Part shown: piece after piece, positions 50,534 to 64,000 of the stretch
How the letters are laid out: the number at the start of each line of letters is the position of its first letter
How positions within the stretch are numbered: the first letter of the stretch is position 1
Source of the DNA: Longimicrobiales bacterium
GTDB lineage: Bacteria > Gemmatimonadota > Gemmatimonadetes > Longimicrobiales > Gaopeijiaceae
Assembly: GCA_965238005.1 (NCBI GenBank)
Contig: OZ250165.1
Span: forward strand, 128,001-192,000
Direction: 5' to 3'
DNA length: 64,000 bases
Made by a program: the position numbers and the translations under genes
Notes under the pieces: generated by a model
The model's database searches: none
What the model was told of the DNA's origin: nothing
Seen by the model: the letters and a program-made list of their open reading frames with translations, nothing else

Positions 50534-51847
50534 CTACTCATAGCACTCGCGACCCAGGTGCGTGATCTGCTCTTCCCCGGAGAGCCACCGGAGCGTGTTC
50601 TTCAGCTTCCAGTGCTGGATGAACAGATCGTGCTCGGGGTAGAGGCCCGGAGCGCACTGGGGGCTCTTGAAGTAGAAGGAGAGCCACTCCTGGATGCCCC
50701 CCAGCCCAGCCCGCCCCGCAAGGTCCATGAACAAGGCCAGATCCAGGACGATGGGCGCCGCCAGGATGGAGTCCTTGCAGAGGAAGTTGACCTTGATCTG
50801 CATGGGATAGCCCAGCCATCCGAAGATGTCGATGTTGTCCCACCCCTCCTTGTCGTCCCCGCGGGGCGGATAGTAGTTGATCCGTACCTTGTGGTAGATG
50901 TCGCCGTAGAGGTCCGGGTAGAGGGCGGGCTGCAGGATGTGGTCGATGACGCCCAGCTTCGACGCTTCCTTCGTCTTGAAGCTGGCCGGGTCATCCAAGA
51001 CGGCCCCGTCGCGGTTCCCGAGTATGTTGGTGCTGAACCAACCCCTGATCCCTAGCATGCGCGCCTTGAATCCGGGGGCCAGGATGGTCTTCATGAGAGT
51101 CTGGCCCGTCTTGAAGTCCTTCCCCCCGATGGGGATGGCGTTCTCCTTGGAGTAGCTCTCGAAGGCAGGGAAGTCCGCAGACAGGTTCGGAGCGCCGTTG
51201 GCGTAGGGAATCCCCTCCATGAGTGCCGCGTACGCGTACAGCATGCTCGGAGCAATGGAGGGGTCGTTCTCCTCCATGGCCTTCTCGAAGGACTCCATCG
51301 TCTCGTGTGTCGGTCCCGGGCGGAGAAAAATCTCCGTGGACCCGCACCAGACCATGACCAGCCGGTCGCAGCCGTTCTCTTCCTTGAAGTTCCTGATGTC
51401 CTCGCGGATCTGCTCCGCGATCTCCCGCTTGTTGGCTCCAGTCTTCTTGTTGGATCCGTCCAGTCGGGTCACATACTCGGGGTCGAAGGCCGCTGGCATG
51501 GGCTTGATGGCGGCGAGCTCGTCCTTGATGGGATCGAAGTGCTCCGATCTCAGCACCCCAGCATTCACGGCGCTCTCGTAGGCGTTGTCCGGGATGGGAT
51601 CCCACCCGCCGAAGACGATCTGATCCAGCTCCGCCAGACCGATGAAGTCCTTGATCAGCGGAGTGCGGTCGTCGATACGCTGGCCCAGCCGGATGGCGTT
51701 CATCTGGGTGAGGCTTCCGATGGGCTTGGCCAGACCCTTCCGGGCGAGCAGGACGCCCGCGATGGTGGTGGTGGCCACGGCTCCCATGCCCGGAAGCAGG
51801 ACCCCCAAGCGCCCTTCAGCGGACCGAATCTCAGGACGTTCGTTCAC
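50534..51847 (-). CDS. ino1: myo-Inositol-1-phosphate synthase
   Basis: GMGAVATT, VFGGWD, GKDFKTGQT, STNILGNRDG, DSILAAP..LDL, SFYFKSP. Confidence 0.93.
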   Translation of the reverse strand: MNERPEIRSAEGRLGVLLPGMGAVATTTIAGVLLARKGLAKPIGSLTQMNAIRLGQRIDDRTPLIKDFIGLAELDQIVFGGWDPIPDNAYESAVNAGVLRSEHFDPIKDELAAIKPMPAAFDPEYVTRLDGSNKKTGANKREIAEQIREDIRNFKEENGCDRLVMVWCGSTEIFLRPGPTHETMESFEKAMEENDPSIAPSMLYAYAALMEGIPYANGAPNLSADFPAFESYSKENAIPIGGKDFKTGQTLMKTILAPGFKARMLGIRGWFSTNILGNRDGAVLDDPASFKTKEASKLGVIDHILQPALYPDLYGDIYHKVRINYYPPRGDDKEGWDNIDIFGWLGYPMQIKVNFLCKDSILAAPIVLDLALFMDLAGRAGLGGIQEWLSFYFKSPQCAPGLYPEHDLFIQHWKLKNTLRWLSGEEQITHLGRECYE

Positions 51848-51878: not shown

Positions 51879-52511
51879 TCACTCGTCCAGGGGCACGCCC
51901 GCCGCTTGTTTGTAGACCCAAAGAATCCTTCTGACCACCGTGTAATTGGTGAGAACGGCGAAGATTACGATCACCCCGCTGATGACGAGACCATCCCAGC
52001 TGAGGCCGAAGATCAGCGATCCAACGCCTAGGAGGACCACCCGCTCGGCCCTCTGCATGAGCCCGACTGAGCAGTCGAGGCCCAGCGTCTCGGCCTTGGC
52101 TCGCGTGTAGCTGATCATGAGAGAGCCCGCCATGGCCAGAGCGATCAGGTAGATCATGCCGATGTTCAGGAGGGACATCTCGTATTGGTTGTAAAGCGAG
52201 ATGAGGCCGATGTAGATGACTACCTCGCTGATCCTGTCGAGCACCGAGTCGTAGAACGCGCCGAACTTGGACTGGAGCCCCGACTCGCGGGCGACCCGTC
52301 CGTCGAAGATGTCGTGGGCACCCCCAAGGAGGACGAAGAGCCCCGCCGTGCGCACATGATCGGTCCCGTAGAGGAACCCCGCGAACACCGTCACCACGAA
52401 CCCGCTGGTGGTGATGAGGTTCGGATGCACGCGCTTCCTCACCAGCCACCGCGTGAGCGGATCGATGATCGGGTAGACCCGATCGCGGAGGTCGTCTAGG
52501 TTCTTTCCCAT
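51879..52511 (-). CDS. CDP-alcohol phosphatidyltransferase, PIP-synthase-like
   Basis: PNLIT, DIFDGRVAR..FGAFYDSVLDR signature, SYTRAKAE, GLMQRAER. Confidence 0.88.
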   Translation of the reverse strand: MGKNLDDLRDRVYPIIDPLTRWLVRKRVHPNLITTSGFVVTVFAGFLYGTDHVRTAGLFVLLGGAHDIFDGRVARESGLQSKFGAFYDSVLDRISEVVIYIGLISLYNQYEMSLLNIGMIYLIALAMAGSLMISYTRAKAETLGLDCSVGLMQRAERVVLLGVGSLIFGLSWDGLVISGVIVIFAVLTNYTVVRRILWVYKQAAGVPLDE

Positions 52512-53857: not shown

Positions 53858-54954
53858 TCCGCGACGCCTCGGAGGCGCTCTTCCCGATCGGCGAGCCGTA
53901 GCGCCGCGATCAGCTCGCTCAAGTCGCCGTCCAGTACCTGGTCCAGGGTGTGGAGGGAGAGCTTGATCCGGTGATCCGTCACGCGGCTCTGGGGGAAGTT
54001 GTACGTGCGGATCTTCGCGGATCGGTCCCCGGTGCCCACTTGAGTCCGCCTCTCCCGTGATCTTTCCGCCTCTTGCTCTGCGATCTTCTGGTCCAGCAGA
54101 CGGCTCCGGAGAACCTTGAGCGCCTTCGCCTTGTTCTTGTGCTGGGACTTCTCATCCTGACACGAGACGACCAGCCCCGAAGGCACGTGCGTGATGCGCA
54201 CCGCCGAATCCGTGGTGTTCACGGACTGGCCCCCTGGTCCCGAGGAGCGGAAGACGTCGATCCGTAGGTCCTTTGGATCGATGTCCAGATCGACCTCGTC
54301 GGCCTCCGGCAGCACGGCCACTGTCGCCGCCGAAGTGTGGATCCTGCCCTGGCTCTCCGTTTCCGGGACGCGCTGCACCCGATGTACGCCCGACTCGTAT
54401 CGGAGGCGGCCGTAGACGCCCTTCCCTCGGACCGTGAAGATGGCCTCCTTGATCGAGCCCGGAATGCCCTCGGAAAGACTCATGAGCTCGATGCTCCAGC
54501 CCTCGCGCTCCGCCGCCCTCTGGTACATGCGGAACAGGTCGTGGGCGAAGAGCCCGGCTTCGTCGCCCCCGGTGCCGGCGCGGATCTCCACGACCGCCGC
54601 ACGGTCGTCCAGGGGGTCCTTGGGGATCAGGAGCTTGCGCGCCTGGTCTCCCAAGGTCTCGATCCGCCCCTCGAGGGAAGCGATCTCGTCCTCGGCTAGG
54701 GAGCGCATCTCGGGGTCGTCGGCCTCAGAAAATAACTCCCGGGCTCCCTGGTGCTCGCCCAGGAGGCCCAGGAGTTGGTCTGCGACTTGGATCACGGGCG
54801 CAAGCTCGGCCCGCTCCTGTCCCAGCGTCCGAAGCCGATCCAGGTTCTGGATGACCTCCGGGCTGGCCAGCTCGTCGTCCAGACCGCGGAATCGCCCCTG
54901 AGCCTCACGAAGACGGTCGAGGAGCCGCTCATCGACTCCCCCGGGGTTACCCAT
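53854..54954 (-). CDS. prfA: Peptide chain release factor 1
   Basis: [14 protein letters not shown] (PxT) motif, GGQ, SQHKNK, RTYNFPQ. Confidence 0.97.
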
Positions 54955-54978
54955 ACGCGAATCGGACCCGGTTTCGTC

Positions 54979-55185
54979 CTACTTGCTGGCCTTCTCGTAC
55001 TTCTTCTTGAACCGCTCGACCCGCCCTGCCGTATCGACCAGGCGCTGCTTGCCCGTGTAAAACGGGTGGCACACGGAGCAGATATCGGTGTGCACTTTGG
55101 CCTGGGTCGCCATGGTCTCGAACGTGTGTCCACACGCGCAGGTTACCATGGCCGGCACGTATTCGGGGTGGATACCCTCTTTCAT
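54979..55185 (-). CDS. rpmE: 50S ribosomal protein L31 (Zn-binding type)
   Basis: [31 protein letters not shown]. Confidence 0.97.
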
Positions 55186-55202
55186 GATCCATCTCCGGTA
55201 TT

Positions 55203-55266
55203 CAACAGAAAAGCGGGCCGGGGATCCCCGGCGAGAACGCCTCGCGGGAATCCGCGCCCGCTCTTT
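55203..55266 (-). promoter_or_regulatory. Long hairpin plus U tract upstream of rpmE (leader/attenuator or terminator)
   Basis: Nested stems AAAGAGCGGGC/GCCCGCTTTT, GGATTCCC/GGGGATCC, GCGAG/CTCGC; ends TTTTCTGTT. Confidence 0.55.
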
Positions 55267-55357
55267 AGTGTCCCGTTGCCAAAGTGTCTCGGCCGGTCGA
55301 GGGCACGGTGCATCCGACCCTCTTGGTGTCTCGCGAACTTCGGAAACGGAACACTAG
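55265..55357. mobile_element. MITE-like repeat, copy 4 (inverted, internally deleted, 93 bp)
   Basis: Both TIRs kept; central 93 bp lost between two CGG microhomologies. Confidence 0.85.
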
Positions 55358-55364
55358 CCTGGGA

Positions 55365-55393
55365 AATATAGAAATCCGGAGAGGTCAGTTCAA
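55365..55393 (-). promoter_or_regulatory. Putative sigma70 promoter of rpmE-prfA-prmC
   Basis: TTGAAC-17 nt-TATATT. Confidence 0.6.
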
Positions 55394-56989
55394 GCCGGTC
55401 CTATTGCGTCCCGCGCCCGCCAGTAACACCAGCGTGACGACCAGCGCCGCCGGGCCGGCAACATCTCCGGTGCGTGTGTAGAGGGTCGTGACGTCGCTCG
55501 TGTAGACGGTGGCTTCCAGTACCTCCGGCTGGAAGAGCCTGGTCCGCCCGTACACCCGCCCGCGGGGGTCCACGAAGAGCGAGATACCCGTGTTCGCGGC
55601 CCGGGCGACGCCGACCCGGTTCTCGATGGCGCGCATGACCAAGTGAGCAGGGTGCTGCCAGAGCGCCGCCGTCCGTGAATACCACGGTTCCCGTCCGAAC
55701 CATGCGTCGTTGGTGAGGTTCACCAGCACGTTCGCTCCCTCCCGGCGGAAGCGTCGAGCGTGCCCGGGGTAGGCGGACTCGAAGCAGATGAGCGTCCCGA
55801 TTCGAGCTCCGCTTCTAGTCGACCCCAGCGGCCAGCCCTCCCCTCGTTCGTACTGGCCGAATGCCTGCCCGCTCTCCACCCACGTGGCGGGCACCAAGGG
55901 CACCCGCTCCACCAGGGGGACTAGGCGATGCTTGTCGTAGCGAAAGCCGGTGAGGACCCCGTCGGCCGACGTGAGGAAGGCCGAGTTGAACTGCACCGAC
56001 GGCCGCGCGCCCTCGCTCCCCTGACCGATGGCCCCGAACAGAACCGGAGCGCCCCACCGCTCCGCGACCCCGAGCACCCGCCGTCGCAGCTCTTCATCCA
56101 CCTCGACCGGCCCCAGGATCGTGGCCTCGGGCCATATCACGAGCTCGGGAGGGGGCTCCCGGAGCGTCGGCCCCGACCTTTGGACGCCCGGCGGGATCTC
56201 CTCGGGCTCGGGAGCTAGCCTTTCAAGCGCTGCCAGCGTGCTGTCGATCGCGCTTCTAGGGTCCAGCTTCACCGGCTCGGGAACATTGGGCTGCACCACG
56301 ACGACGTGGCCGATGGCCCGTACCGGCAGTGTGGCCGCACGCCAGTAGCCCCACCCGGCCGGGACAGCCAGAACGATGGAGAAGGCGGCGGCCCAGGCCA
56401 AGGCCTTGCGCATGCCGAGCTCACCACGGGCGGCGAGGACCGCCTCGGCCAGTAGCCCGTTCAGGACCGCCAGCCAGAGGGTGACGCCGCGAGCCCCCAC
56501 CAGCTCGGCCGACCCGACCAGCTCGGGATACGCCGTGAGCGAGGTCCCGAGACCCAACCAGGGGAAGGCCAACCCGCCCGGTGCGTGCGCCCGCAGCCAC
56601 TCCAGGGCCGTCCAGGCCAGCGGAAGGGCAAGCCACAACGGAATTCCACCCCGACGCACCATCCGGTGAAGTGCCCAGGCGAAGGAGCCGGCGCCCAACC
56701 CGAGAGCCGACACCACAGCCAGGTACGCGGGGATCGCCCACCAGGTGAACCACACGAGGGCGATTGCGATCCAGTGGAGGAGAAGCCCGAAGTACAGGAG
56801 ACCGAACCAGACTCCACCTCGGAATGCCTCCCCCGGCGCACTCCCGTCGCTCCCGCGGTCGACGATCCAGACCGCGAGAGGGACGAGGGCTACGAACGAC
56901 GGGATCAACAGATGGAGCGGTGGAAACGCGCTGACGAGGAGTACTGCGGAGACGGCGGGAACCAGGCGGTCCCCGGGCCCGGGGATCAC
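55385..56989 (-). CDS. lnt: Apolipoprotein N-acyltransferase
   Basis: Multi-TM N-terminus, FPW..LG, VQPN; triad motifs WPE, YDKHRLVP, ICFE; NDAWFG, QH, RAIE, RAANTGIS. Confidence 0.95.
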   Translation of the reverse strand: MIPGPGDRLVPAVSAVLLVSAFPPLHLLIPSFVALVPLAVWIVDRGSDGSAPGEAFRGGVWFGLLYFGLLLHWIAIALVWFTWWAIPAYLAVVSALGLGAGSFAWALHRMVRRGGIPLWLALPLAWTALEWLRAHAPGGLAFPWLGLGTSLTAYPELVGSAELVGARGVTLWLAVLNGLLAEAVLAARGELGMRKALAWAAAFSIVLAVPAGWGYWRAATLPVRAIGHVVVVQPNVPEPVKLDPRSAIDSTLAALERLAPEPEEIPPGVQRSGPTLREPPPELVIWPEATILGPVEVDEELRRRVLGVAERWGAPVLFGAIGQGSEGARPSVQFNSAFLTSADGVLTGFRYDKHRLVPLVERVPLVPATWVESGQAFGQYERGEGWPLGSTRSGARIGTLICFESAYPGHARRFRREGANVLVNLTNDAWFGREPWYSRTAALWQHPAHLVMRAIENRVGVARAANTGISLFVDPRGRVYGRTRLFQPEVLEATVYTSDVTTLYTRTGDVAGPAALVVTLVLLAGAGRNRTGLN

Positions 56990-58278
56990 TCCCCTGCCGG
57001 TGGCCACGCCCTGAGCACTCCCCAGGCGAGCCCGAGGTGGGCAGGTAGTGCCAGGGCCAGAATCTCCCCGTTGACCTGATCCAGACCGGGCAGCACCTGC
57101 AGGGCGAGCCCGGCCACGCCCAGCGCGGCGACAGTGACAGCGGCGCGCCCAGTCCACACGCGCCCCTTCCCCGTGGCGGCCAGGAGGAGCATAGCAGAGA
57201 GTACCAGAGACACCGGGTTGGCCTGGAAGGCGTTCTCGTTCAACCCCAAGAAGAAGTGATCCGTGAAGAACCACGAGAGCAGCAGCGCCGAACCCAGGAG
57301 TCCAACGATGAGGCTCCACCCCCCGCCCGCCAGCGCCAGGAGCCATGCCGCCCAGCGCTTGCCTCTTCCGGCCATCCATCCGGAGATGGCGAAGAGACCC
57401 CCGAACACGGCCCCCGTCAGGAGGAACCCGACGAGCTTGTTGGGAGCGCTGCTCGGGACGGGCCCCCGGCGGGCATCCACGACCTGCACGGCCGGCCCCA
57501 GAAGCGGCACGTCCTCACCTTCGAACGTCGGTGCCCGCACCTCCTCGAGCTGGCGCTGGAGCGGGAGGGGCAGGAACATCTCGTCCCACACCGAGATGGG
57601 CTCGTCCGCGCGGTTGCCCATGACGAACTGGATGCCCGCGTAGGGCGCCAGCACCGGCCCTAGCAGCCGGGCCGTGTGCCACCGGTAGGTAGTGCCCGTC
57701 TCCAGTCCCTCCGTCGCCGCCCGGATCCGTCCGCCCAAGACACGGTCGAGAGCATCCCGGACGCGGGTGGAGCAGTTGTCCCGATAGTAGTCGTATCGGT
57801 AGTAGCGGTTGGCCTCGGTATCCGTCTCGCGGACATGTGCCTGGAGCTCGAGTCGCTGGCCCGGGGTTAAGTTGACCCGTTGGAGCCAGACGCTGCGATT
57901 CACGCGCCGATAGGACTCGATCATGTCTGCGGACCGGTACCCGGCCATCCAGTAGCGCATGCGGCCCCGGAGCAGACGTGGGATGAAGTCCGACTGATTG
58001 AATTCGAACATGCCCCAGTTGTAGGCGATCTCGGTCCCCGCCCGGCCGTCTCGGATGACCAGAGCGTTGTGGCTGAAGCGCTCCCAGATGGCATCGCCCG
58101 GGCCCATGGTCATGAGGAACACTTCGAGATGCGAGCCCAGGACTGGCGCGGAGGCGGAGTCAGCCTCCGCCTGTGGGAGGACCTCTGCGCGGAGGGGAGC
58201 GTGGAGTCCGGCGGCCCCAAGCGTCACGGCCACAAAGAGGACGCATGCGAGCCCCCGCGGCTCCTCAGCCTTCGCCAA
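56986..58278 (-). CDS. DUF4105-domain membrane protein, Lnb-like putative lipoprotein N-acyltransferase
   Basis: Signal peptide; LMTMGPGD..WERFSHNAL, YNWGMF, YRYDYYRDNCSTRVRD, MFLP..L; about five C-terminal TM helices incl. FTDH. Confidence 0.8.
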   Translation of the reverse strand: MAKAEEPRGLACVLFVAVTLGAAGLHAPLRAEVLPQAEADSASAPVLGSHLEVFLMTMGPGDAIWERFSHNALVIRDGRAGTEIAYNWGMFEFNQSDFIPRLLRGRMRYWMAGYRSADMIESYRRVNRSVWLQRVNLTPGQRLELQAHVRETDTEANRYYRYDYYRDNCSTRVRDALDRVLGGRIRAATEGLETGTTYRWHTARLLGPVLAPYAGIQFVMGNRADEPISVWDEMFLPLPLQRQLEEVRAPTFEGEDVPLLGPAVQVVDARRGPVPSSAPNKLVGFLLTGAVFGGLFAISGWMAGRGKRWAAWLLALAGGGWSLIVGLLGSALLLSWFFTDHFFLGLNENAFQANPVSLVLSAMLLLAATGKGRVWTGRAAVTVAALGVAGLALQVLPGLDQVNGEILALALPAHLGLAWGVLRAWPPAGE

Positions 58279-59290
58279 GTCGTACCTCCTGCCCCTGCTC
58301 CGCCGATCGGTACACGGCCTGCATGACCTCCATCAGATGGACCTGCTCCGTAGGAAACGGCAGGTCGCACTCACCCGCCACCGCCCTGACGAACTGATCC
58401 AGCAGCCTCCGGTAGGCGTTCGTGAAGGGATTCTCACCCCCCCGTGGCTTGGGCTGCCGCGGCGTCACGTCCATGGGCCGGCCGCCCAGCTGCTTCTGGA
58501 TCTCCAGGGGGGGCATAGAGCCCGATCCGTCGGTCCCCATGACCCGGGCGTAAGTGCGATCGGCATCGGCGAACAGGCTCCGGCTCGCCTCGACGCTGAA
58601 GACCGTGCCGGAGTCGGCCACGGCGAAGACGCTGGCCGCGTCCTCCACGGAGTCGTCTCCTTTCTGGAACACAGCCGAGACTCTGGTGATTTGTGGATAC
58701 CCCACCAGCCAGAATGCAAGATCCAGGATCTGGACGCCCAGGTCCATGAGTGCCCCACCCCCCCGCTCCGGCTTCTGGCGCCACGTCGAGCGCACGGACG
58801 GGGTCTTCCGCGTGAGGGAGCTCGCACGCACCGCGTAGATGTCGCCAAGCTCGCCGCCGGCCACGAAGGACGCCAGAGCTCCTGCGTCGGGGCGGAACCG
58901 GTGATTCATCCCGACGGCGAGACAGCGTCCGACAGAGTCGGCCACGTCCAGGACCCGCTGCACCCCCTCGGGAGTGAGCGCGAGGGGCCGCTCCACGAGG
59001 ACGTGCTTCCCGGCCTCGAGAGCTGCGATGGCCAGCGTCTCGTGGAGGTGGTTGGGCGCGCAGATCACGGCGGCCTGGATGTCCTCGTCCTGAACCAGCT
59101 CCTGGTCGGAGAGGACCTTCGGCACATCGAAGCGGTTGGCGAGGGCGTCGGCCTTGGGCCGGTCCGCGTCGGCGAGGGCGACGACGTCGGCGTCTTCCCG
59201 CTCGGAGAGGATGGGGAGGTAGACGATCTGGCTGATGGCGCCGACGCCCAGAACTCCGACCTGGATCGGGTCGGGCTCCGATCCGAACAT
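58265..59290 (-). CDS. Gfo/Idh/MocA-family oxidoreductase
   Basis: GVGAI, PNHLH, ALEAGKHVLVERP, RF.P, GGGALMDLGV. Confidence 0.9.
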   Translation of the reverse strand: MFGSEPDPIQVGVLGVGAISQIVYLPILSEREDADVVALADADRPKADALANRFDVPKVLSDQELVQDEDIQAAVICAPNHLHETLAIAALEAGKHVLVERPLALTPEGVQRVLDVADSVGRCLAVGMNHRFRPDAGALASFVAGGELGDIYAVRASSLTRKTPSVRSTWRQKPERGGGALMDLGVQILDLAFWLVGYPQITRVSAVFQKGDDSVEDAASVFAVADSGTVFSVEASRSLFADADRTYARVMGTDGSGSMPPLEIQKQLGGRPMDVTPRQPKPRGGENPFTNAYRRLLDQFVRAVAGECDLPFPTEQVHLMEVMQAVYRSAEQGQEVRLGEG

Positions 59291-59964
59291 CAGCGTGCCT
59301 CACCTTGGACGAGCTCGCCCCAGATGTAGCTGAGGCCGAAGCGGAGCTCTACATAGCGCAGGTCTCCGAGCACCTCGAACTTGCTTCCTCCGTAGAGCCG
59401 GAATCGATCCGTGACCGGATACTCCAGGCCTCCATGCACGTTGAAGCCCGCCGAGACGGAGTCCAGTAGGTCCTCGACAAACGTGCCGTTCACGGCCGGC
59501 CCCGATCCGTTCAAGAAGTGGGTCGAGACGCCGACCCCGGTCCAGAGGAAGAGGTCGAGAGGCACAGACCACATGTAGTGCCCGTCCACGCTGATGACCA
59601 CGTCGTCCCGGTCGATGGACCCGAGGTCGAACCCTCCCGGCGGAGCCGTGCCACCCTGGATGGCATTCAGCGCTGCCAGACGCGCCTCGAAATCGTTCAC
59701 CTCGTCTTGGGCCATGCGAGACGTCCAGAAGGCCACACCGGGAACGATCCGGAAGCCCGGGCCGAGAAAGCCGAGATCGAACCGGAGCGCGAAGATCTCC
59801 GTGTTCTCCACGTTGTTGGCGAAGATGTACCCGCCCTCGGCCAGAACCCCTCGGAAGGAGAGGTTCGCGTAATCGTAGTCCGCCAGCTCCTGACTTCCCG
59901 CGCCCGCGGGGGCGAGGATCACCACTGCTGCCAACGCCAACTTCCACATCGCATCCGTCCTCAT
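59290..59964 (-). CDS. Exported protein, probable outer-membrane beta-barrel
   Basis: Signal peptide, alternating hydrophobic strands, C-terminal ELRFGLSYIW. Confidence 0.6.
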   Translation of the reverse strand: MRTDAMWKLALAAVVILAPAGAGSQELADYDYANLSFRGVLAEGGYIFANNVENTEIFALRFDLGFLGPGFRIVPGVAFWTSRMAQDEVNDFEARLAALNAIQGGTAPPGGFDLGSIDRDDVVISVDGHYMWSVPLDLFLWTGVGVSTHFLNGSGPAVNGTFVEDLLDSVSAGFNVHGGLEYPVTDRFRLYGGSKFEVLGDLRYVELRFGLSYIWGELVQGEAR

Positions 59965-60053
59965 CAGGACCTCACCTCCCTAGTCATACGTGCGCGTGAA
60001 TCCTCGAAAAGGCCTGTGCGCGACCCACTGTACTCCTTCAACAGGCCTCTCAG

Positions 60054-61337
60054 TCAGCCGACCTCCAGCGCCGCCTCCCGAACCGCCTCCAGGGTCTCGT
60101 CGATGACGTCCGGCGTGTGGGCGGTGGACAGGAAGCCGGCCTCGAACGGGGATGGAGCAAGAAACACGCCTCGATCGAGGCACGCCCGGTGGAAGAGTCG
60201 GAACTTGTCGGTATCCGCGCCTTGAGCGTCCTCGAAGGAGTGGACGGCCCCCCCGCGGAAGAAAACACCCCACATGGACCCCACGGAGCTTCCGGTAGCC
60301 GGTATTCCCGCATCCTCCAGGGCCGACACCACACCCTTCGCCAGGCGGCTCGCGGCAGCCTCCAGGTCCCGGAAGGGGTCGTGGGTCTCGAGGTATGCGA
60401 GCTGGGCGCCACCGGCCGCCGTGGCCAGGGGATTCCCCGAAAGGGTCCCGGCCTGATAGACGGGTCCGGCGGGAGCCACCTGTTCCATGATGTCGCGGCG
60501 GCCGCCGAACGCACCCACGGGCAGACCGCCCCCGATGACCTTCCCCAGCGTGGTGAGGTCCGGAAGGACGTCGTAGCGCTCCTGTGCCCCACCCATGGCG
60601 ACCCGGAAGCCGGTCATGACCTCGTCGAAGACGAGAAGGGCACCGTGTCGCTCCGTAACCGAGCGCAGCCCTTCCAGGAATCCGTCCACCGGGGGGATCA
60701 GACCCGAGTTACCCACCACGGGCTCCACGAACACGCTGGAGATCTCTTCTCCCCGGGCAGCGAAGAGCTCCTCCGCGGCGACCAGGTCGTTGAAGGGCAG
60801 CACCGCCGTGTGGGACGCCGCCGCCGCCGGAACGCCGGGCGAGTCGGGGAGGCCCAGCGTCGCCACACCGCTCCCCGCAGCCACCAGAAAGGCGTCGGCG
60901 TGGCCGTGGTAGCATCCGGAGAACTTGAGGGCGACGTCCCGTCCGGTGGCGGCCCGGGCCAGGCGAAGGGCGCTCATGGTGGCCTCGGTACCACTGTTCA
61001 CCAGGCGCACCATCTCGACCCCCGGCACCAAGCGCACGATTCGCTCCGCCAGGTCGACTTCGGCGGCCGTCGGGGCTCCGTACGAGGTGCCGCGGTGGAG
61101 CTGGTCGGCCACCGCTTCAATGACCACTGGATGGGCGTGCCCCAGGATGAGGGGCCCCCAGCTCAGGACGTAGTCCATGTAGCGACGTCCCTCGGTGTCG
61201 TACAGGTAAGGGCCCTCACCGCGCTCCACGAAGAACGGCGTGCTCCCGACCGAACGGAAGGACCGCACCGGAGAGTTGACCCCCCCGGGGATCAGCTCCT
61301 GGGCGCGCCGCCAGAGTGCGTCGGAAACGCCCGTCAC
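60054..61337 (-). CDS. hemL: Glutamate-1-semialdehyde 2,1-aminomutase
   Basis: PGGVNSPVR, SGTEATM, CYHGH, FDEVMTGFR, GKVIGGG, GTLSGNP. Confidence 0.97.
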   Translation of the reverse strand: MTGVSDALWRRAQELIPGGVNSPVRSFRSVGSTPFFVERGEGPYLYDTEGRRYMDYVLSWGPLILGHAHPVVIEAVADQLHRGTSYGAPTAAEVDLAERIVRLVPGVEMVRLVNSGTEATMSALRLARAATGRDVALKFSGCYHGHADAFLVAAGSGVATLGLPDSPGVPAAAASHTAVLPFNDLVAAEELFAARGEEISSVFVEPVVGNSGLIPPVDGFLEGLRSVTERHGALLVFDEVMTGFRVAMGGAQERYDVLPDLTTLGKVIGGGLPVGAFGGRRDIMEQVAPAGPVYQAGTLSGNPLATAAGGAQLAYLETHDPFRDLEAAASRLAKGVVSALEDAGIPATGSSVGSMWGVFFRGGAVHSFEDAQGADTDKFRLFHRACLDRGVFLAPSPFEAGFLSTAHTPDVIDETLEAVREAALEVG

Positions 61338-62812
61338 GCCGACACGGACCGACCGATGAGGTCGTACTCCAGGGCGTCCACGATCTCCACTGTGACGATC
61401 TCACCCGGCTTCAGTCCTGGGTCCGGGTGCAGGTGTGTGACGCCGTCCACGTCGAGGGCTTGCCCCACGGTCCGCGCGACCCCGACCGGCCGACCCCGGG
61501 CGGCATCGCCCAGGGGACCCGGATCGTCCACGACGTCGTCGATCAGCGCCTGGATCCGGCGCCCCACCAGCTCTGCGTTCCGCTCCGCCGAGATCATGCG
61601 CTGAAGATCCATGACCTCCTCCAGTCTCTCTCGCATGAGGGAATCGGGTACTTGATCGGGCATCTCGGCGGCGGGGGTACCGTCTTCCACGGAGTACGTG
61701 AACGCTCCGACCCGATCGAAGCGGATCTCTTCCAGAAGATCCAGCATTTCCCGAAAGTCGCCGTCGGTCTCTCCGGGGAATCCGACGATCACTGTCGTGC
61801 GGAGGGTGAGGTCGGGGACCATGTCCCGGAGCCAGGCCACGCGCTCCCGGATGATGCTCCGGCGCTCCGGCCTCCTCATGGCCTCCAGAATGCGATCGCT
61901 GCCGTGCTGGAGCGGCATGTCCAGGTACGGGAGGATGGCCTCCTCCTCCGCCATGAGCTCCACGACCTCGGGGGTGATGCCGGACGGATACATGTAGAAG
62001 AGGCGATACCAGAGCACGTCGGTGTCGTGGACGAGGGCTCGGAGGAGCTCCGGAAGGAGCGGAGCGGAACGGTCCTTGCGCCACAGATCGCGTCCGTACC
62101 ACGTGGTGTCCTGGGAGATGATGTTGAGCTCCTTCACGCCCTGGCGGGCTAGGGCCTGCGCCTCGGCCACCAGCTCCTCCAGCGGGGCCGAACGGTGAAG
62201 CCCTCGAAAGCTCGGGATGGCACAGAACGCGCACGTGTGGTCGCACCCTTCGCTGATCTTCAGGAACGACGTGTGCGGCGTCTCGGTCGACAGGATCCTG
62301 AGGGGTTGTTCCATGTTGGGAACGGCCTCGGGCACCTCGGCGAGGAGGCCGCGGTCGCGTAGCTCCGGCACCAGGGAGGCCATCTCCGTGAGACCGAGGA
62401 AGAGGTCCACCTCGGGGATCTCCGACTGGAGCTCCTCCTTGTAGCGCTGCACCATGCATCCCACGGCCACCACCGCCCGTATGCTGCCCTCCTCCTTGAG
62501 CTGGCACGCCTCCAGGATCGTCTCGATGGACTGCTCCTTGGCCGCCTCGATGAACCCGCACGTGTTCACCACCACCACGTCGGAGCCCTCCACGTCCGAG
62601 GAGACCCGGGCGCCGTGTCCCACCAGCGCGGCCATCATCTTCTCGGAGTCCACGGTGTTCTTGTCGCACCCGAGAGTCACCAGACCGATGCGCGGTCCGT
62701 CCTCGGGACCGACGGGATCGATGTCCAGGCGGACCGCCTCGACGTCCGGCGCCACATCGGTCCGTATGGGGTCCGGCGACAGAGGGAAGACCGGGAGTTC
62801 CCTCGTCCTCAT
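61334..62812 (-). CDS. rimO: Ribosomal protein S12 methylthiotransferase
   Basis: LGCDKN.VDSE, NTCGFI, EGCDHTCAFC, SQDTT.YG, C-terminal TRAM domain. Confidence 0.95.
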   Translation of the reverse strand: MRTRELPVFPLSPDPIRTDVAPDVEAVRLDIDPVGPEDGPRIGLVTLGCDKNTVDSEKMMAALVGHGARVSSDVEGSDVVVVNTCGFIEAAKEQSIETILEACQLKEEGSIRAVVAVGCMVQRYKEELQSEIPEVDLFLGLTEMASLVPELRDRGLLAEVPEAVPNMEQPLRILSTETPHTSFLKISEGCDHTCAFCAIPSFRGLHRSAPLEELVAEAQALARQGVKELNIISQDTTWYGRDLWRKDRSAPLLPELLRALVHDTDVLWYRLFYMYPSGITPEVVELMAEEEAILPYLDMPLQHGSDRILEAMRRPERRSIIRERVAWLRDMVPDLTLRTTVIVGFPGETDGDFREMLDLLEEIRFDRVGAFTYSVEDGTPAAEMPDQVPDSLMRERLEEVMDLQRMISAERNAELVGRRIQALIDDVVDDPGPLGDAARGRPVGVARTVGQALDVDGVTHLHPDPGLKPGEIVTVEIVDALEYDLIGRSVSA

Positions 62813-63471
62813 CGCGTCATCACCCGGGCGCCCGGCGGTGGCACGAAGCGAAACTCGTCGTCGGACACCTCGACGTCCACCCGGATGTCCGTGAGGCGCA
62901 CCCGCCGGATGGACTCGTTGGCGTCGTGGACGTCTATGCCCGTGATCAGATCGCTCTCGGCATCGATCCACACCACGGCCGAACGGAATCCCGCCGCCTC
63001 CCGCGGGGTGACGGTGAGCTTGTGAGACGGCCTCGCGTCCATCTCCTCGATTCCCTGGTAGGTGGCGTCGAACCGGCCTCGCGGGTCCTCGAGGAGGTTC
63101 TTGAAGAAGTTGAAGCGACCTTCAGCACCCGTGGCAGCGAAGCGCATCACCTGCTTGGCGTCCATGCTCGGATAGAAGGTCCAGAGGAATTCGCCGTCCA
63201 CCACCACCAGGTCCCCCTCGGGGTCGCTGAAGCGCATGGAGAACTCATCAGGCTGGCGCTGGCAGATCGTGCCCTCGCCGGACCGGCTCTCTCCGAGAAG
63301 CGTGACCTCGATCTCCTGGTGGAACCGGGCACAGAGCGTCTCCAGCCCCCAGAAGCGCTCTGCCGCGGCCTCCAGGACCTCGTAGGCCCGCTCGTCCTGG
63401 GCGGGAAGCCCGACCGGCACCGCGGCGCCGACGACTTCCGCCACGAGGAGCACGGGCAGGATGATGTGCAT
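62809..63471 (-). CDS. lolA: Outer-membrane lipoprotein carrier LolA family
   Basis: Signal peptide, A.F.Q, VVDGEFLW.F.P...QV, C-terminal F.FVPP.GA; start uncertain. Confidence 0.82.
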   Translation of the reverse strand: MHIILPVLLVAEVVGAAVPVGLPAQDERAYEVLEAAAERFWGLETLCARFHQEIEVTLLGESRSGEGTICQRQPDEFSMRFSDPEGDLVVVDGEFLWTFYPSMDAKQVMRFAATGAEGRFNFFKNLLEDPRGRFDATYQGIEEMDARPSHKLTVTPREAAGFRSAVVWIDAESDLITGIDVHDANESIRRVRLTDIRVDVEVSDDEFRFVPPPGARVMTR

Positions 63472-63573
63472 GCGGTCTCGGCATCGGGCGGGACGCTGGA
63501 GACGTGGTGAGGGGCGTGGCTCCGTCATGCGCCGTCCATACCCGTTGGGCATCGGGGCCGTTCCTAGATGCTT

Positions 63574-64000
63574 CTAGATCCCTTGGCTCGAGCAGATGGC
63601 GTCGAGCTCGTCGAGACCCACGAGGACCTCCCTCGCCTTGGAGCCCTCGGACGGGCCCAGGATCCCCGCGTCGTGAAGCTGATCCACGATCCTCGCGGCC
63701 CGGCCATAGCCGATCTTCAGGCGGCGCTGGAGGAGCGACGTGGAGCCCTGGTCATGCTGGATGCACACCTCGCCGGCCGCCCGGAAGAGCTCGTCCCAGT
63801 CCGACGGTCCGTCCCCCCCTACGGCCGACTCGGCGGCCTCCTCCAGCTCGTGGCTCCGGATCTGCTCGAGGATGTTCGACTCGTCATCCCGCACGGCTTC
63901 GTCGAAGTCCTGATTCCGAAGCTCCACCTGGTCCCGGTACCAGCCCATCATACGATCCGTCTCGGGTGTGGAGATGTAGGCTCCCTGGATGCGCACGGGC
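63574..64000 (-). CDS. ftsK: DNA translocase FtsK, C-terminal part (partial)
   Basis: RIQGAYIS and gamma domain STSLLQRRLKIGYGRAARIVDQL. Confidence 0.93.
   Translation of the reverse strand, partial: PVRIQGAYISTPETDRMMGWYRDQVELRNQDFDEAVRDDESNILEQIRSHELEEAAESAVGGDGPSDWDELFRAAGEVCIQHDQGSTSLLQRRLKIGYGRAARIVDQLHDAGILGPSEGSKAREVLVGLDELDAICSSQGI

Follow-up and report, generated by a model that had tools for sequence, protein, structure and literature searches.

A gene of the Lnb (formerly DUF4105) family and a gene for Lnt, apolipoprotein N-acyltransferase, stand in tandem with overlapping frames in the genome of a Longimicrobiales bacterium (Gemmatimonadota). The pair lies in a stretch of 64,000 nucleotides (assembly GCA_965238005.1, contig OZ250165.1, positions 128,001 to 192,000), here called the window, whose coordinates are used throughout. 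As predicted from the sequence, the products are two membrane acyltransferases, both intact, unrelated to each other and facing the periplasm; their frames overlap by four bases and end a conserved string of housekeeping genes. Both kinds of enzyme are known from other bacteria to attach the third fatty acid of lipoproteins. Lipoprotein N-acylation was long ascribed to Lnt alone, until Lit, LnsAB and Lnb showed that it has been invented repeatedly; to our knowledge, these solutions have always been described as one per organism. A coupled Lnt and Lnb-family pair kept over a long evolutionary span challenges this either/or picture and extends the Lnb family well beyond Bacteroides. We favour, with a probability of roughly 40%, the reading that the two proteins form an old, co-inherited pair of thioester acyltransferases, in which Lnt would carry out standard N-acylation and the Lnb-like protein would be a second, not fully redundant lipoprotein N-acyltransferase. 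Whether the two are redundant, specialised or different in chemistry matters for lipoprotein sorting in diderm bacteria other than the usual models, and for claims of Lnb as a Bacteroides-specific drug target.

An Lnb-family gene overlapping an intact lnt

Both genes are on the minus strand. The Lnb-like open reading frame (ORF; 430 amino acids, TTG start) ends in a TGA at 56988-56986 that overlaps the GTG start of lnt at 56989-56987 (534 amino acids), so that the junction reads GTGA at 56986-56989, or tcac on the plus strand. A second candidate start for lnt is the in-frame GTG that lies 18 bases upstream of the first. The longest ORF that the window offers in the lnt frame begins 394 bases within the Lnb-like gene. 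In relatives, however, this frame opens just 21-78 bases upstream of the junction, and the true start would therefore be either the junction GTG or the GTG 18 bases earlier. Either candidate overlaps the upstream Lnb-like gene. A preliminary description of this DNA, made from its letters alone, had already noted the stop-start overlap, a Glu-Lys-Cys triad in Lnt, a His and a Cys in the upstream protein, a bundle of transmembrane (TM) helices at that protein's C terminus and a lolA gene a few genes upstream on the same strand, and each of these observations held: the lolA-like gene lies five genes upstream, and the others are detailed below.

The upstream protein matches Pfam Lnb_N (PF13387) over residues 49-188 at 69.8 bits, against a cut-off of 22.2. 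Its match to 5TMH_Lnb (PF25221) scored 21.9 bits, slightly under the cut-off of 25.2, and precomputed annotation assigns PF25221 to many of its close relatives. The sole NCBIfam match, nearly full length, was to the Lnb equivalog NF051878, at 141.3 bits against a cut-off of 550. By these profiles the protein is a member of the Lnb family at the Pfam level and not the Lnb equivalog, and the preliminary assignment to DUF4105/Lnb stands at the first of these levels. An AlphaFold2 model built with 15 relatives (predicted local distance difference test 84.3, predicted template modelling score 0.76) contains an N-terminal helix, a mixed alpha/beta domain at about residues 51-267 and five long C-terminal helices (282-304, 308-338, 356-368, 373-395 and 404-424). 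In a PDB fold search, the only high-probability match was the Vibrio type VI secretion system (T6SS) effector TseH (6v98; probability 0.96, E 0.16, template modelling score 0.42 normalised by target length, 162 aligned columns), which is also named as the nearest structure to Bacteroides Lnb (PMC11573676). RND efflux pumps ranked above TseH in this search and were rejected as spurious (root-mean-square deviation >30).

The motifs RFSHNAL and DNCSTR contain His70 and Cys169, respectively. As a Bacteroides reference we used the Lnb of B. finegoldii from NZ_OY725907.1, which scores 667.4 bits on NF051878, above the cut-off. (This sequence is filed as a plasmid; it carries lptC, secA and pantothenate kinase and looks like a chromosome piece.) BLASTP aligned the two proteins at 29% identity over 243 residues (E 2e-32), and His70, Asn87 and Cys169 fall on the His, Asn and Cys of the B. 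finegoldii protein. For B. thetaiotaomicron Lnb, a triad of Asn66-His49-Cys148 has been proposed, of which Cys148 is experimentally essential (PMC11573676); the spacing in the window protein is that of His49-Asn66-Cys148, and the motif contexts match the B. thetaiotaomicron rows of the supplementary alignment in the same paper. In an eight-sequence alignment including the Bacteroides protein, the invariant residues included the triad and His341, Asn347 and Gln401 of the membrane domain. An alignment of 79 Lnb-like sequences taken from related loci has His70 and Cys169 in every row and Asn87 in 73, with His in the remaining six. Residue 88 (about 58015-58017) directly follows the triad Asn. Trp occupies this position in 39 rows, all 22 tandem ones among them; 40 rows of the crown clade have Tyr, as does Bacteroides Lnb. 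We rejected this Trp as a marker of the tandem state: 17 rows without lnt have it too, and the split tracks clade.

The downstream protein passes the equivalog threshold for Lnt (TIGR00546, 249.7 bits against a cut-off of 132.9), and both Pfam LNT_N and CN_hydrolase score above their cut-offs. Its similarity to solved Lnt chains is low (about 69 bits). In the alignment with PDB chain 8q2p_A, Glu288 coincides with the motif WPE, Lys353 with NK and Cys402 with IC(Y/F)E. These residues align with the E. coli triad of Glu267, Lys335 and Cys387. For Cys387, formation of a thioester with a phospholipid acyl chain is cited in PMC11573676. The triad was invariant in 18 of 18 related Lnt sequences. Sequence comparison thus identifies the protein as an ordinary, canonical Lnt of the nitrilase fold. 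It shares with the E. coli and P. aeruginosa enzymes (TIGR00546; PDB 5n6h, 5xhq, 8q2p) the LNT_N membrane domain, the nitrilase-type domain and the triad, and its gene differs from theirs in having a start codon that shares bases with the stop of a gene of the Lnb family. Some Lnt homologs (P0176, P0186, P0187; matches to the Lnt of L069) carry a C-terminal Rce1-like/CPBP fusion (LNT_N + CN_hydrolase + PF02517); such fusions may link the Lnt and LnsAB systems, CPBP being the family of LnsB.

Conservation and ancestry of the tandem

To place the pair among relatives, we scanned one genome per species with a profile of the Lnb-like alignment and took the best 80 of 579 confirmed matches, a sample biased to close relatives. 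The closest loci are metagenome-assembled genomes (MAGs) labelled Longimicrobiales or Gemmatimonadota, with 96% protein identity in L001. A tblastn search with the window Lnt found lnt in 21 of the 80 loci, always on the same strand and directly downstream of the Lnb-like gene, and because this gene order recurs, the tandem arrangement is not due to chance. When the 10 loci with fewer than 1200 bases downstream were set aside, 70 judgeable loci were left, 21 tandem and 49 without lnt at this site; the adjacency reported in the preliminary description is thus conserved. Tandem loci with recovered flanks have a common neighbourhood from rimO to prmC. Their junctions show the 4-base RTGA overlap in 12 of 21 cases and a 1-base overlap in one; in the other eight, candidate lnt starts lie at about -41 to +48 bases.

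In a quick maximum-likelihood tree of the 79 Lnb-like sequences, the tandem state appears on both sides of the deepest split. One tandem clade of 12 includes the window (Shimodaira-Hasegawa-like approximate likelihood ratio test, 98), and a further 10 tandem rows form the basal branches of the other half of the tree. A crown clade of 53 rows (Gemmatimonadales-type plus three from Planctomycetota) has no lnt at this site, and at least three changes between the tandem and non-tandem states are needed. Given midpoint rooting, this distribution would agree with a tandem in the ancestor from which lnt was later lost or moved elsewhere, and the three Planctomycetota rows nested in the Gemmatimonadota crown clade hint at gene transfer. 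A protein search with the Lnt of L069 returned 66 matches, a few of which are named only Gemmatimonadetes, Gemmatimonadales or Gemmatimonadota bacterium, names too coarse to place lnt in the crown group; a literature search for Lnt in Gemmatimonadota found nothing relevant.

Across 18 tandem genomes, the pairwise divergences of Lnt and of the Lnb-like protein are strongly correlated (Mantel r 0.975, with none of 2000 permutations as high). Identity to the window proteins across the tandem lineages is 36-47% for Lnt and 41-49% for the Lnb-like protein. When the window is compared with L003, L004, L005 and L008, which are moderately diverged from it, both genes have a ratio of nonsynonymous to synonymous substitution rates (dN/dS) of 0.16-0.24; for L001 and L002, its two nearest relatives, the ratio is 0.35-0.42. 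Purifying selection on the two genes is similar. Together, these comparisons of sequences indicate a pair that is old in Gemmatimonadota and whose two genes have been passed on jointly.

A broader history would make the tandem the ancestral N-acylation set-up of a lineage comprising Gemmatimonadota and the Bacteroidota group, in which the two mechanistically unrelated enzymes would divide the lipoproteome, for example into inner- or outer-membrane and surface-exposed lipoproteins, or by different N-acyl chains or phospholipid donors. Bacteroidota and crown Gemmatimonadales would then have kept only Lnb and other bacteria only Lnt. We consider this history quite improbable; if true, the locus would be the living two-enzyme state behind the published pattern of displacement, and a natural system for asking what each N-acyltransferase contributes.

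Candidate roles of the Lnb-like protein

In the reading that we favour, each enzyme would take an acyl chain from a membrane phospholipid, hold it as a thioester on its catalytic cysteine and, on the outer side of the inner membrane, transfer it to an acceptor. Lnt would deliver its chain to the alpha-amine of diacylglyceryl-cysteine lipoproteins. The Lnb-like enzyme would be a second N-acyltransferase that may act on other lipoproteins than Lnt or draw on another donor or chain, and expression of the two would be co-ordinated through their overlapping frames. LnsA and LRAT, acyltransferases of the permuted NlpC/P60 group, use a Cys-His pair for ping-pong acyl transfer of the same kind, with the sn-1 chain of phospholipids as donor (PMC13559823, JBC 2026). 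Both enzymes look active, since their triads are conserved and dN/dS is low, and the long retention of both suggests roles that are not identical. That the Lnb-like enzyme would also be a lipoprotein N-acyltransferase is the simplest reading because B. fragilis Lnb alone rescues Lnt-depleted E. coli (PMC11573676) and because DUF4105 genes and lnt swap in shared contexts, DUF4105 proteins having been repeatedly displaced by Lnt, in three contexts (PMC12994826, PLoS Biol 2026, on a Salmonella T6SS effector).

Published work treats the two enzymes as alternatives, as the preliminary description had stated. Lnb is the lipoprotein N-acyltransferase of Bacteroides, represented by BF9343_0945 of B. 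fragilis and its B. thetaiotaomicron ortholog (PMC11573676, PNAS 2024); according to that paper, B. fragilis is without an lnt ortholog and Lnb is apparently confined to Bacteroides. The displacement study concerns the same two families and likewise draws functional equivalence from genomic context, but each context there has one gene or the other, whereas the window has both side by side (PMC12994826). That study describes the DUF4105 clade as primarily, though not exclusively, from Bacteroides. Its supplement includes one DUF4105 gene from Gemmatimonadetes, which lies downstream of rimO and has no lnt as a neighbour, and a search of its neighbourhood table yielded no row for 'apolipoprotein N-acyltransferase'. 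Full-text literature searches, whose coverage excludes most subscription journals and may be incomplete for long supplements, found no description of an Lnb-Lnt tandem or co-occurrence. The arrangement appears to be a new coupling of two known families. The term 'undescribed system' in the preliminary description was too strong: the locus is a conserved coupled gene pair, whose products may or may not act jointly.

Compared with Bacteroides Lnb, the window protein has the same Lnb_N periplasmic domain followed by five TM helices, the same His-Asn-Cys spacing and triad motifs, the same membrane-domain His, Asn and Gln, and the same nearest fold. It differs in its sequence (25-29% identity), in its low score on the equivalog model, in that its gene overlaps an intact lnt, so that it is not the sole N-acyltransferase candidate of its genome, and in its host, a member of the Gemmatimonadota rather than of Bacteroides, the genus to which the PNAS paper describes Lnb as confined. 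The gene following B. finegoldii lnb (L081, 5152-6726) belongs to the alkaline phosphatase family, with start and stop sharing one base, and is not lnt.

Several observations weigh against the favoured reading. Activity data for the family are so far limited to members from Bacteroidota, overall identity to Bacteroides Lnb is 25%, and the equivalog score is well under its cut-off. Any two neighbouring genes that pass down vertically should show such correlated divergence, the tree was a quick one with a midpoint root, and the locus sample leans to close relatives. Coupling to lnt is not obligatory, because lnt is missing at the site in 49 of the 70 judgeable loci, among them L009 and L014, whose branches fall immediately outside the tandem clade of the window. 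A GFO/IDH/MocA oxidoreductase gene directly upstream of the Lnb-like gene is more constant than lnt (49 of 73 judgeable loci), with no functional link to the Lnb-like gene evident. We found no Lnb-Lnt fusion among longer relatives, a weak piece of evidence. Finally, the Lnb-like family is very large, with 4786 clusters (50% identity) at E <= 0.001, 3670 at 1e-10 and 890 at 1e-30. Clusters of this two-domain architecture in the ESM Atlas mostly bear the label Pseudomonadota (Atlas taxa rest on few members), a phylum that has Lnt, and an Lnb-like protein and Lnt may therefore share a genome more commonly than the view of them as alternatives implies.

These features of the family also underlie the main rival, in which the Lnb-like protein would perform the same chemistry on another acceptor, such as a lysophospholipid (for example the by-product of Lnt), another envelope lipid or another position on lipoproteins, leaving Lnt as the sole N-acyltransferase. 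The distance from the Bacteroides equivalog, the size of the family, its apparent abundance in a phylum with Lnt and the greater constancy of the oxidoreductase all suit it, as does the variety of lipid substrates among permuted NlpC/P60 relatives, namely LRAT, HRASLS, YiiX and Tox-Act1, the last being the sister clade of DUF4105 (PMC12994826). TseH and Tox-Act1 share the permuted NlpC/P60 fold of the soluble domain; they are, however, secreted toxins from conflict-system contexts without a membrane domain, whereas the window gene has a housekeeping context and encodes five TM helices. The triad and the polar membrane-domain residues in common with bona fide Lnb argue against another acceptor, the frame overlap with lnt suits a role in the same pathway, and the in-context replacement of DUF4105 proteins by Lnt argues that they generally do the job of Lnt (PMC12994826). 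On balance, we regard another acceptor as somewhat unlikely.

If instead both enzymes N-acylated the same lipoproteins, the tandem would mark a phase in which one analogue is replacing the other, with either gene freely lost. The 49 loci without lnt at this site would be expected, and they differ in what they hold: in L014, prfA follows the Lnb-like gene after about 370 bases, L009 has an EEP-family gene, and L022 an MBL-fold gene and an opposite-strand Crp gene. The matches to lnt are split over three reading frames in L030 (8293-10016) and over two in L002 (8290-9892), which may reflect decay or indel errors in long-read MAG assembly. The published pattern, too, is one of mutual displacement (PMC12994826). 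Pure redundancy is, however, not expected to endure so long: the pair persists across lineages as diverged as those above, the triads are whole in every intact copy, and dN/dS is equal and low in both genes. We therefore consider redundancy unlikely.

We also weighed an obligate two-protein machine, in which the Lnb-like protein and Lnt would act only as a complex, by analogy with LnsAB of S. aureus, where an NlpC/P60 enzyme caps a membrane partner. The frame overlap in 12 of 21 tandem loci would suit such a machine. LnsA, too, is a Cys-His enzyme of the permuted NlpC/P60 type and depends for lipoprotein N-acylation on an integral membrane protein encoded alongside it, but it has no membrane domain of its own, and LnsB is a CPBP-family protein without an essential catalytic motif (PMC13559823). 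The partner in the window is a nitrilase-family Lnt that would be a complete enzyme itself, and Pfam found an Rce1-like/CPBP domain in neither window protein, so the pairing is not of the LnsAB type. Lnt works alone in E. coli. B. fragilis Lnb alone is likewise enough in Lnt-depleted E. coli (PMC11573676). Many relatives keep the Lnb-like gene without an adjoining lnt, and no fused form was found among longer relatives. Two longer Lnb-like relatives are fused to HEAT repeats and to a hydantoinase, respectively, and six longer cluster representatives carry HEAT, DinB_2 or no added domain. A complex prediction for Lnt with residues 44-430 of the Lnb-like protein gave no answer (score 0.00) in two runs without controls, which speaks neither for nor against binding. 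An obligate machine appears highly improbable. In Planctomycetota-type relatives, a HEAT-repeat protein follows the Lnb-like gene or is fused to it (L025, 7750-9351; P0189, P0242, P0318).

Gene neighbourhood

The pair ends a minus-strand string that runs from the end of ftsK through the lolA-like gene, rimO, hemL, the beta-barrel-like gene and the GFO/IDH/MocA oxidoreductase gene to the Lnb-like gene and lnt (Table 1). The oxidoreductase stop sits 14 bases inside the Lnb-like ORF. A terminator-like hairpin suggests that lnt is the last gene of its unit; past it lie prfA, prmC, a small YlbF-like ORF, a phosphatidylinositol-phosphate-synthase-like gene and ino1. The sole sigma-70-like promoter match in 54800-64000 is at 55365-55393 on the minus strand, at the lnt stop and upstream of prfA, and fits a separate prfA-prmC transcription unit.

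Table 1. Features at and upstream of the Lnb-like/lnt junction, in window coordinates.
Feature	Position	Strand	Basis and remarks
Terminator-like GC hairpin with T-rich tail	55217-55232	-	Between lnt and prfA; consensus scan alone, 5 such sites in the region against 3.2 expected
lnt, apolipoprotein N-acyltransferase	55385-56989	-	TIGR00546; LNT_N + CN_hydrolase; triad alignment
Lnb-family (DUF4105) putative acyltransferase	56986-58278	-	N-terminal hydrophobic helix, permuted NlpC/P60-like periplasmic domain, five C-terminal TM helices
GFO/IDH/MocA-family oxidoreductase	58265-59290	-	Pfam; best NCBIfam matches all far under cut-off
Shine-Dalgarno-like AGGAGG	58285-58290	-	6 bases before the Lnb-like TTG, within the 3' end of the oxidoreductase gene; direct sequence reading
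Small secreted protein, probably outer-membrane beta-barrel, 224 amino acids	59290-59964	-	Signal-peptide-like N terminus; ESM Atlas neighbours named outer-membrane protein beta-barrel
hemL, glutamate-1-semialdehyde 2,1-aminomutase	60054-61337	-	TIGR00713, 595 bits against cut-off 527
rimO, S12 methylthiotransferase	61334-62971	-	TIGR01125, 464.6 bits against cut-off 357
lolA-like periplasmic lipoprotein carrier	62809-63552	-	Pfam LolA, 47.8 bits against 23.6; TIGR00547, 70 bits, under cut-off 112

The longest rimO ORF probably starts too early, the profile match beginning at its residue 94. The beta-barrel-like protein has no match in Pfam or NCBIfam, and its gene is kept upstream of the oxidoreductase gene in 24 of the 80 loci. 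For hemL, rimO, the oxidoreductase and the beta-barrel-like neighbour, no pathway link to the function of the Lnb-like protein is evident. The genes at 1-44000 of the window are housekeeping genes, and no lgt, lspA or lolCDE was seen among 36 ORFs scanned in the rest of the window. On the minus strand, ino1, for myo-inositol-1-phosphate synthase (50534-51847), adjoins the phosphatidylinositol-phosphate-synthase-like gene (51879-52511), which scores 128-149 bits, somewhat below the NCBIfam cut-offs. This inositol-phospholipid module is kept downstream of prfA-prmC in tandem-type loci, and the source organism, like Bacteroides, probably makes inositol lipids.

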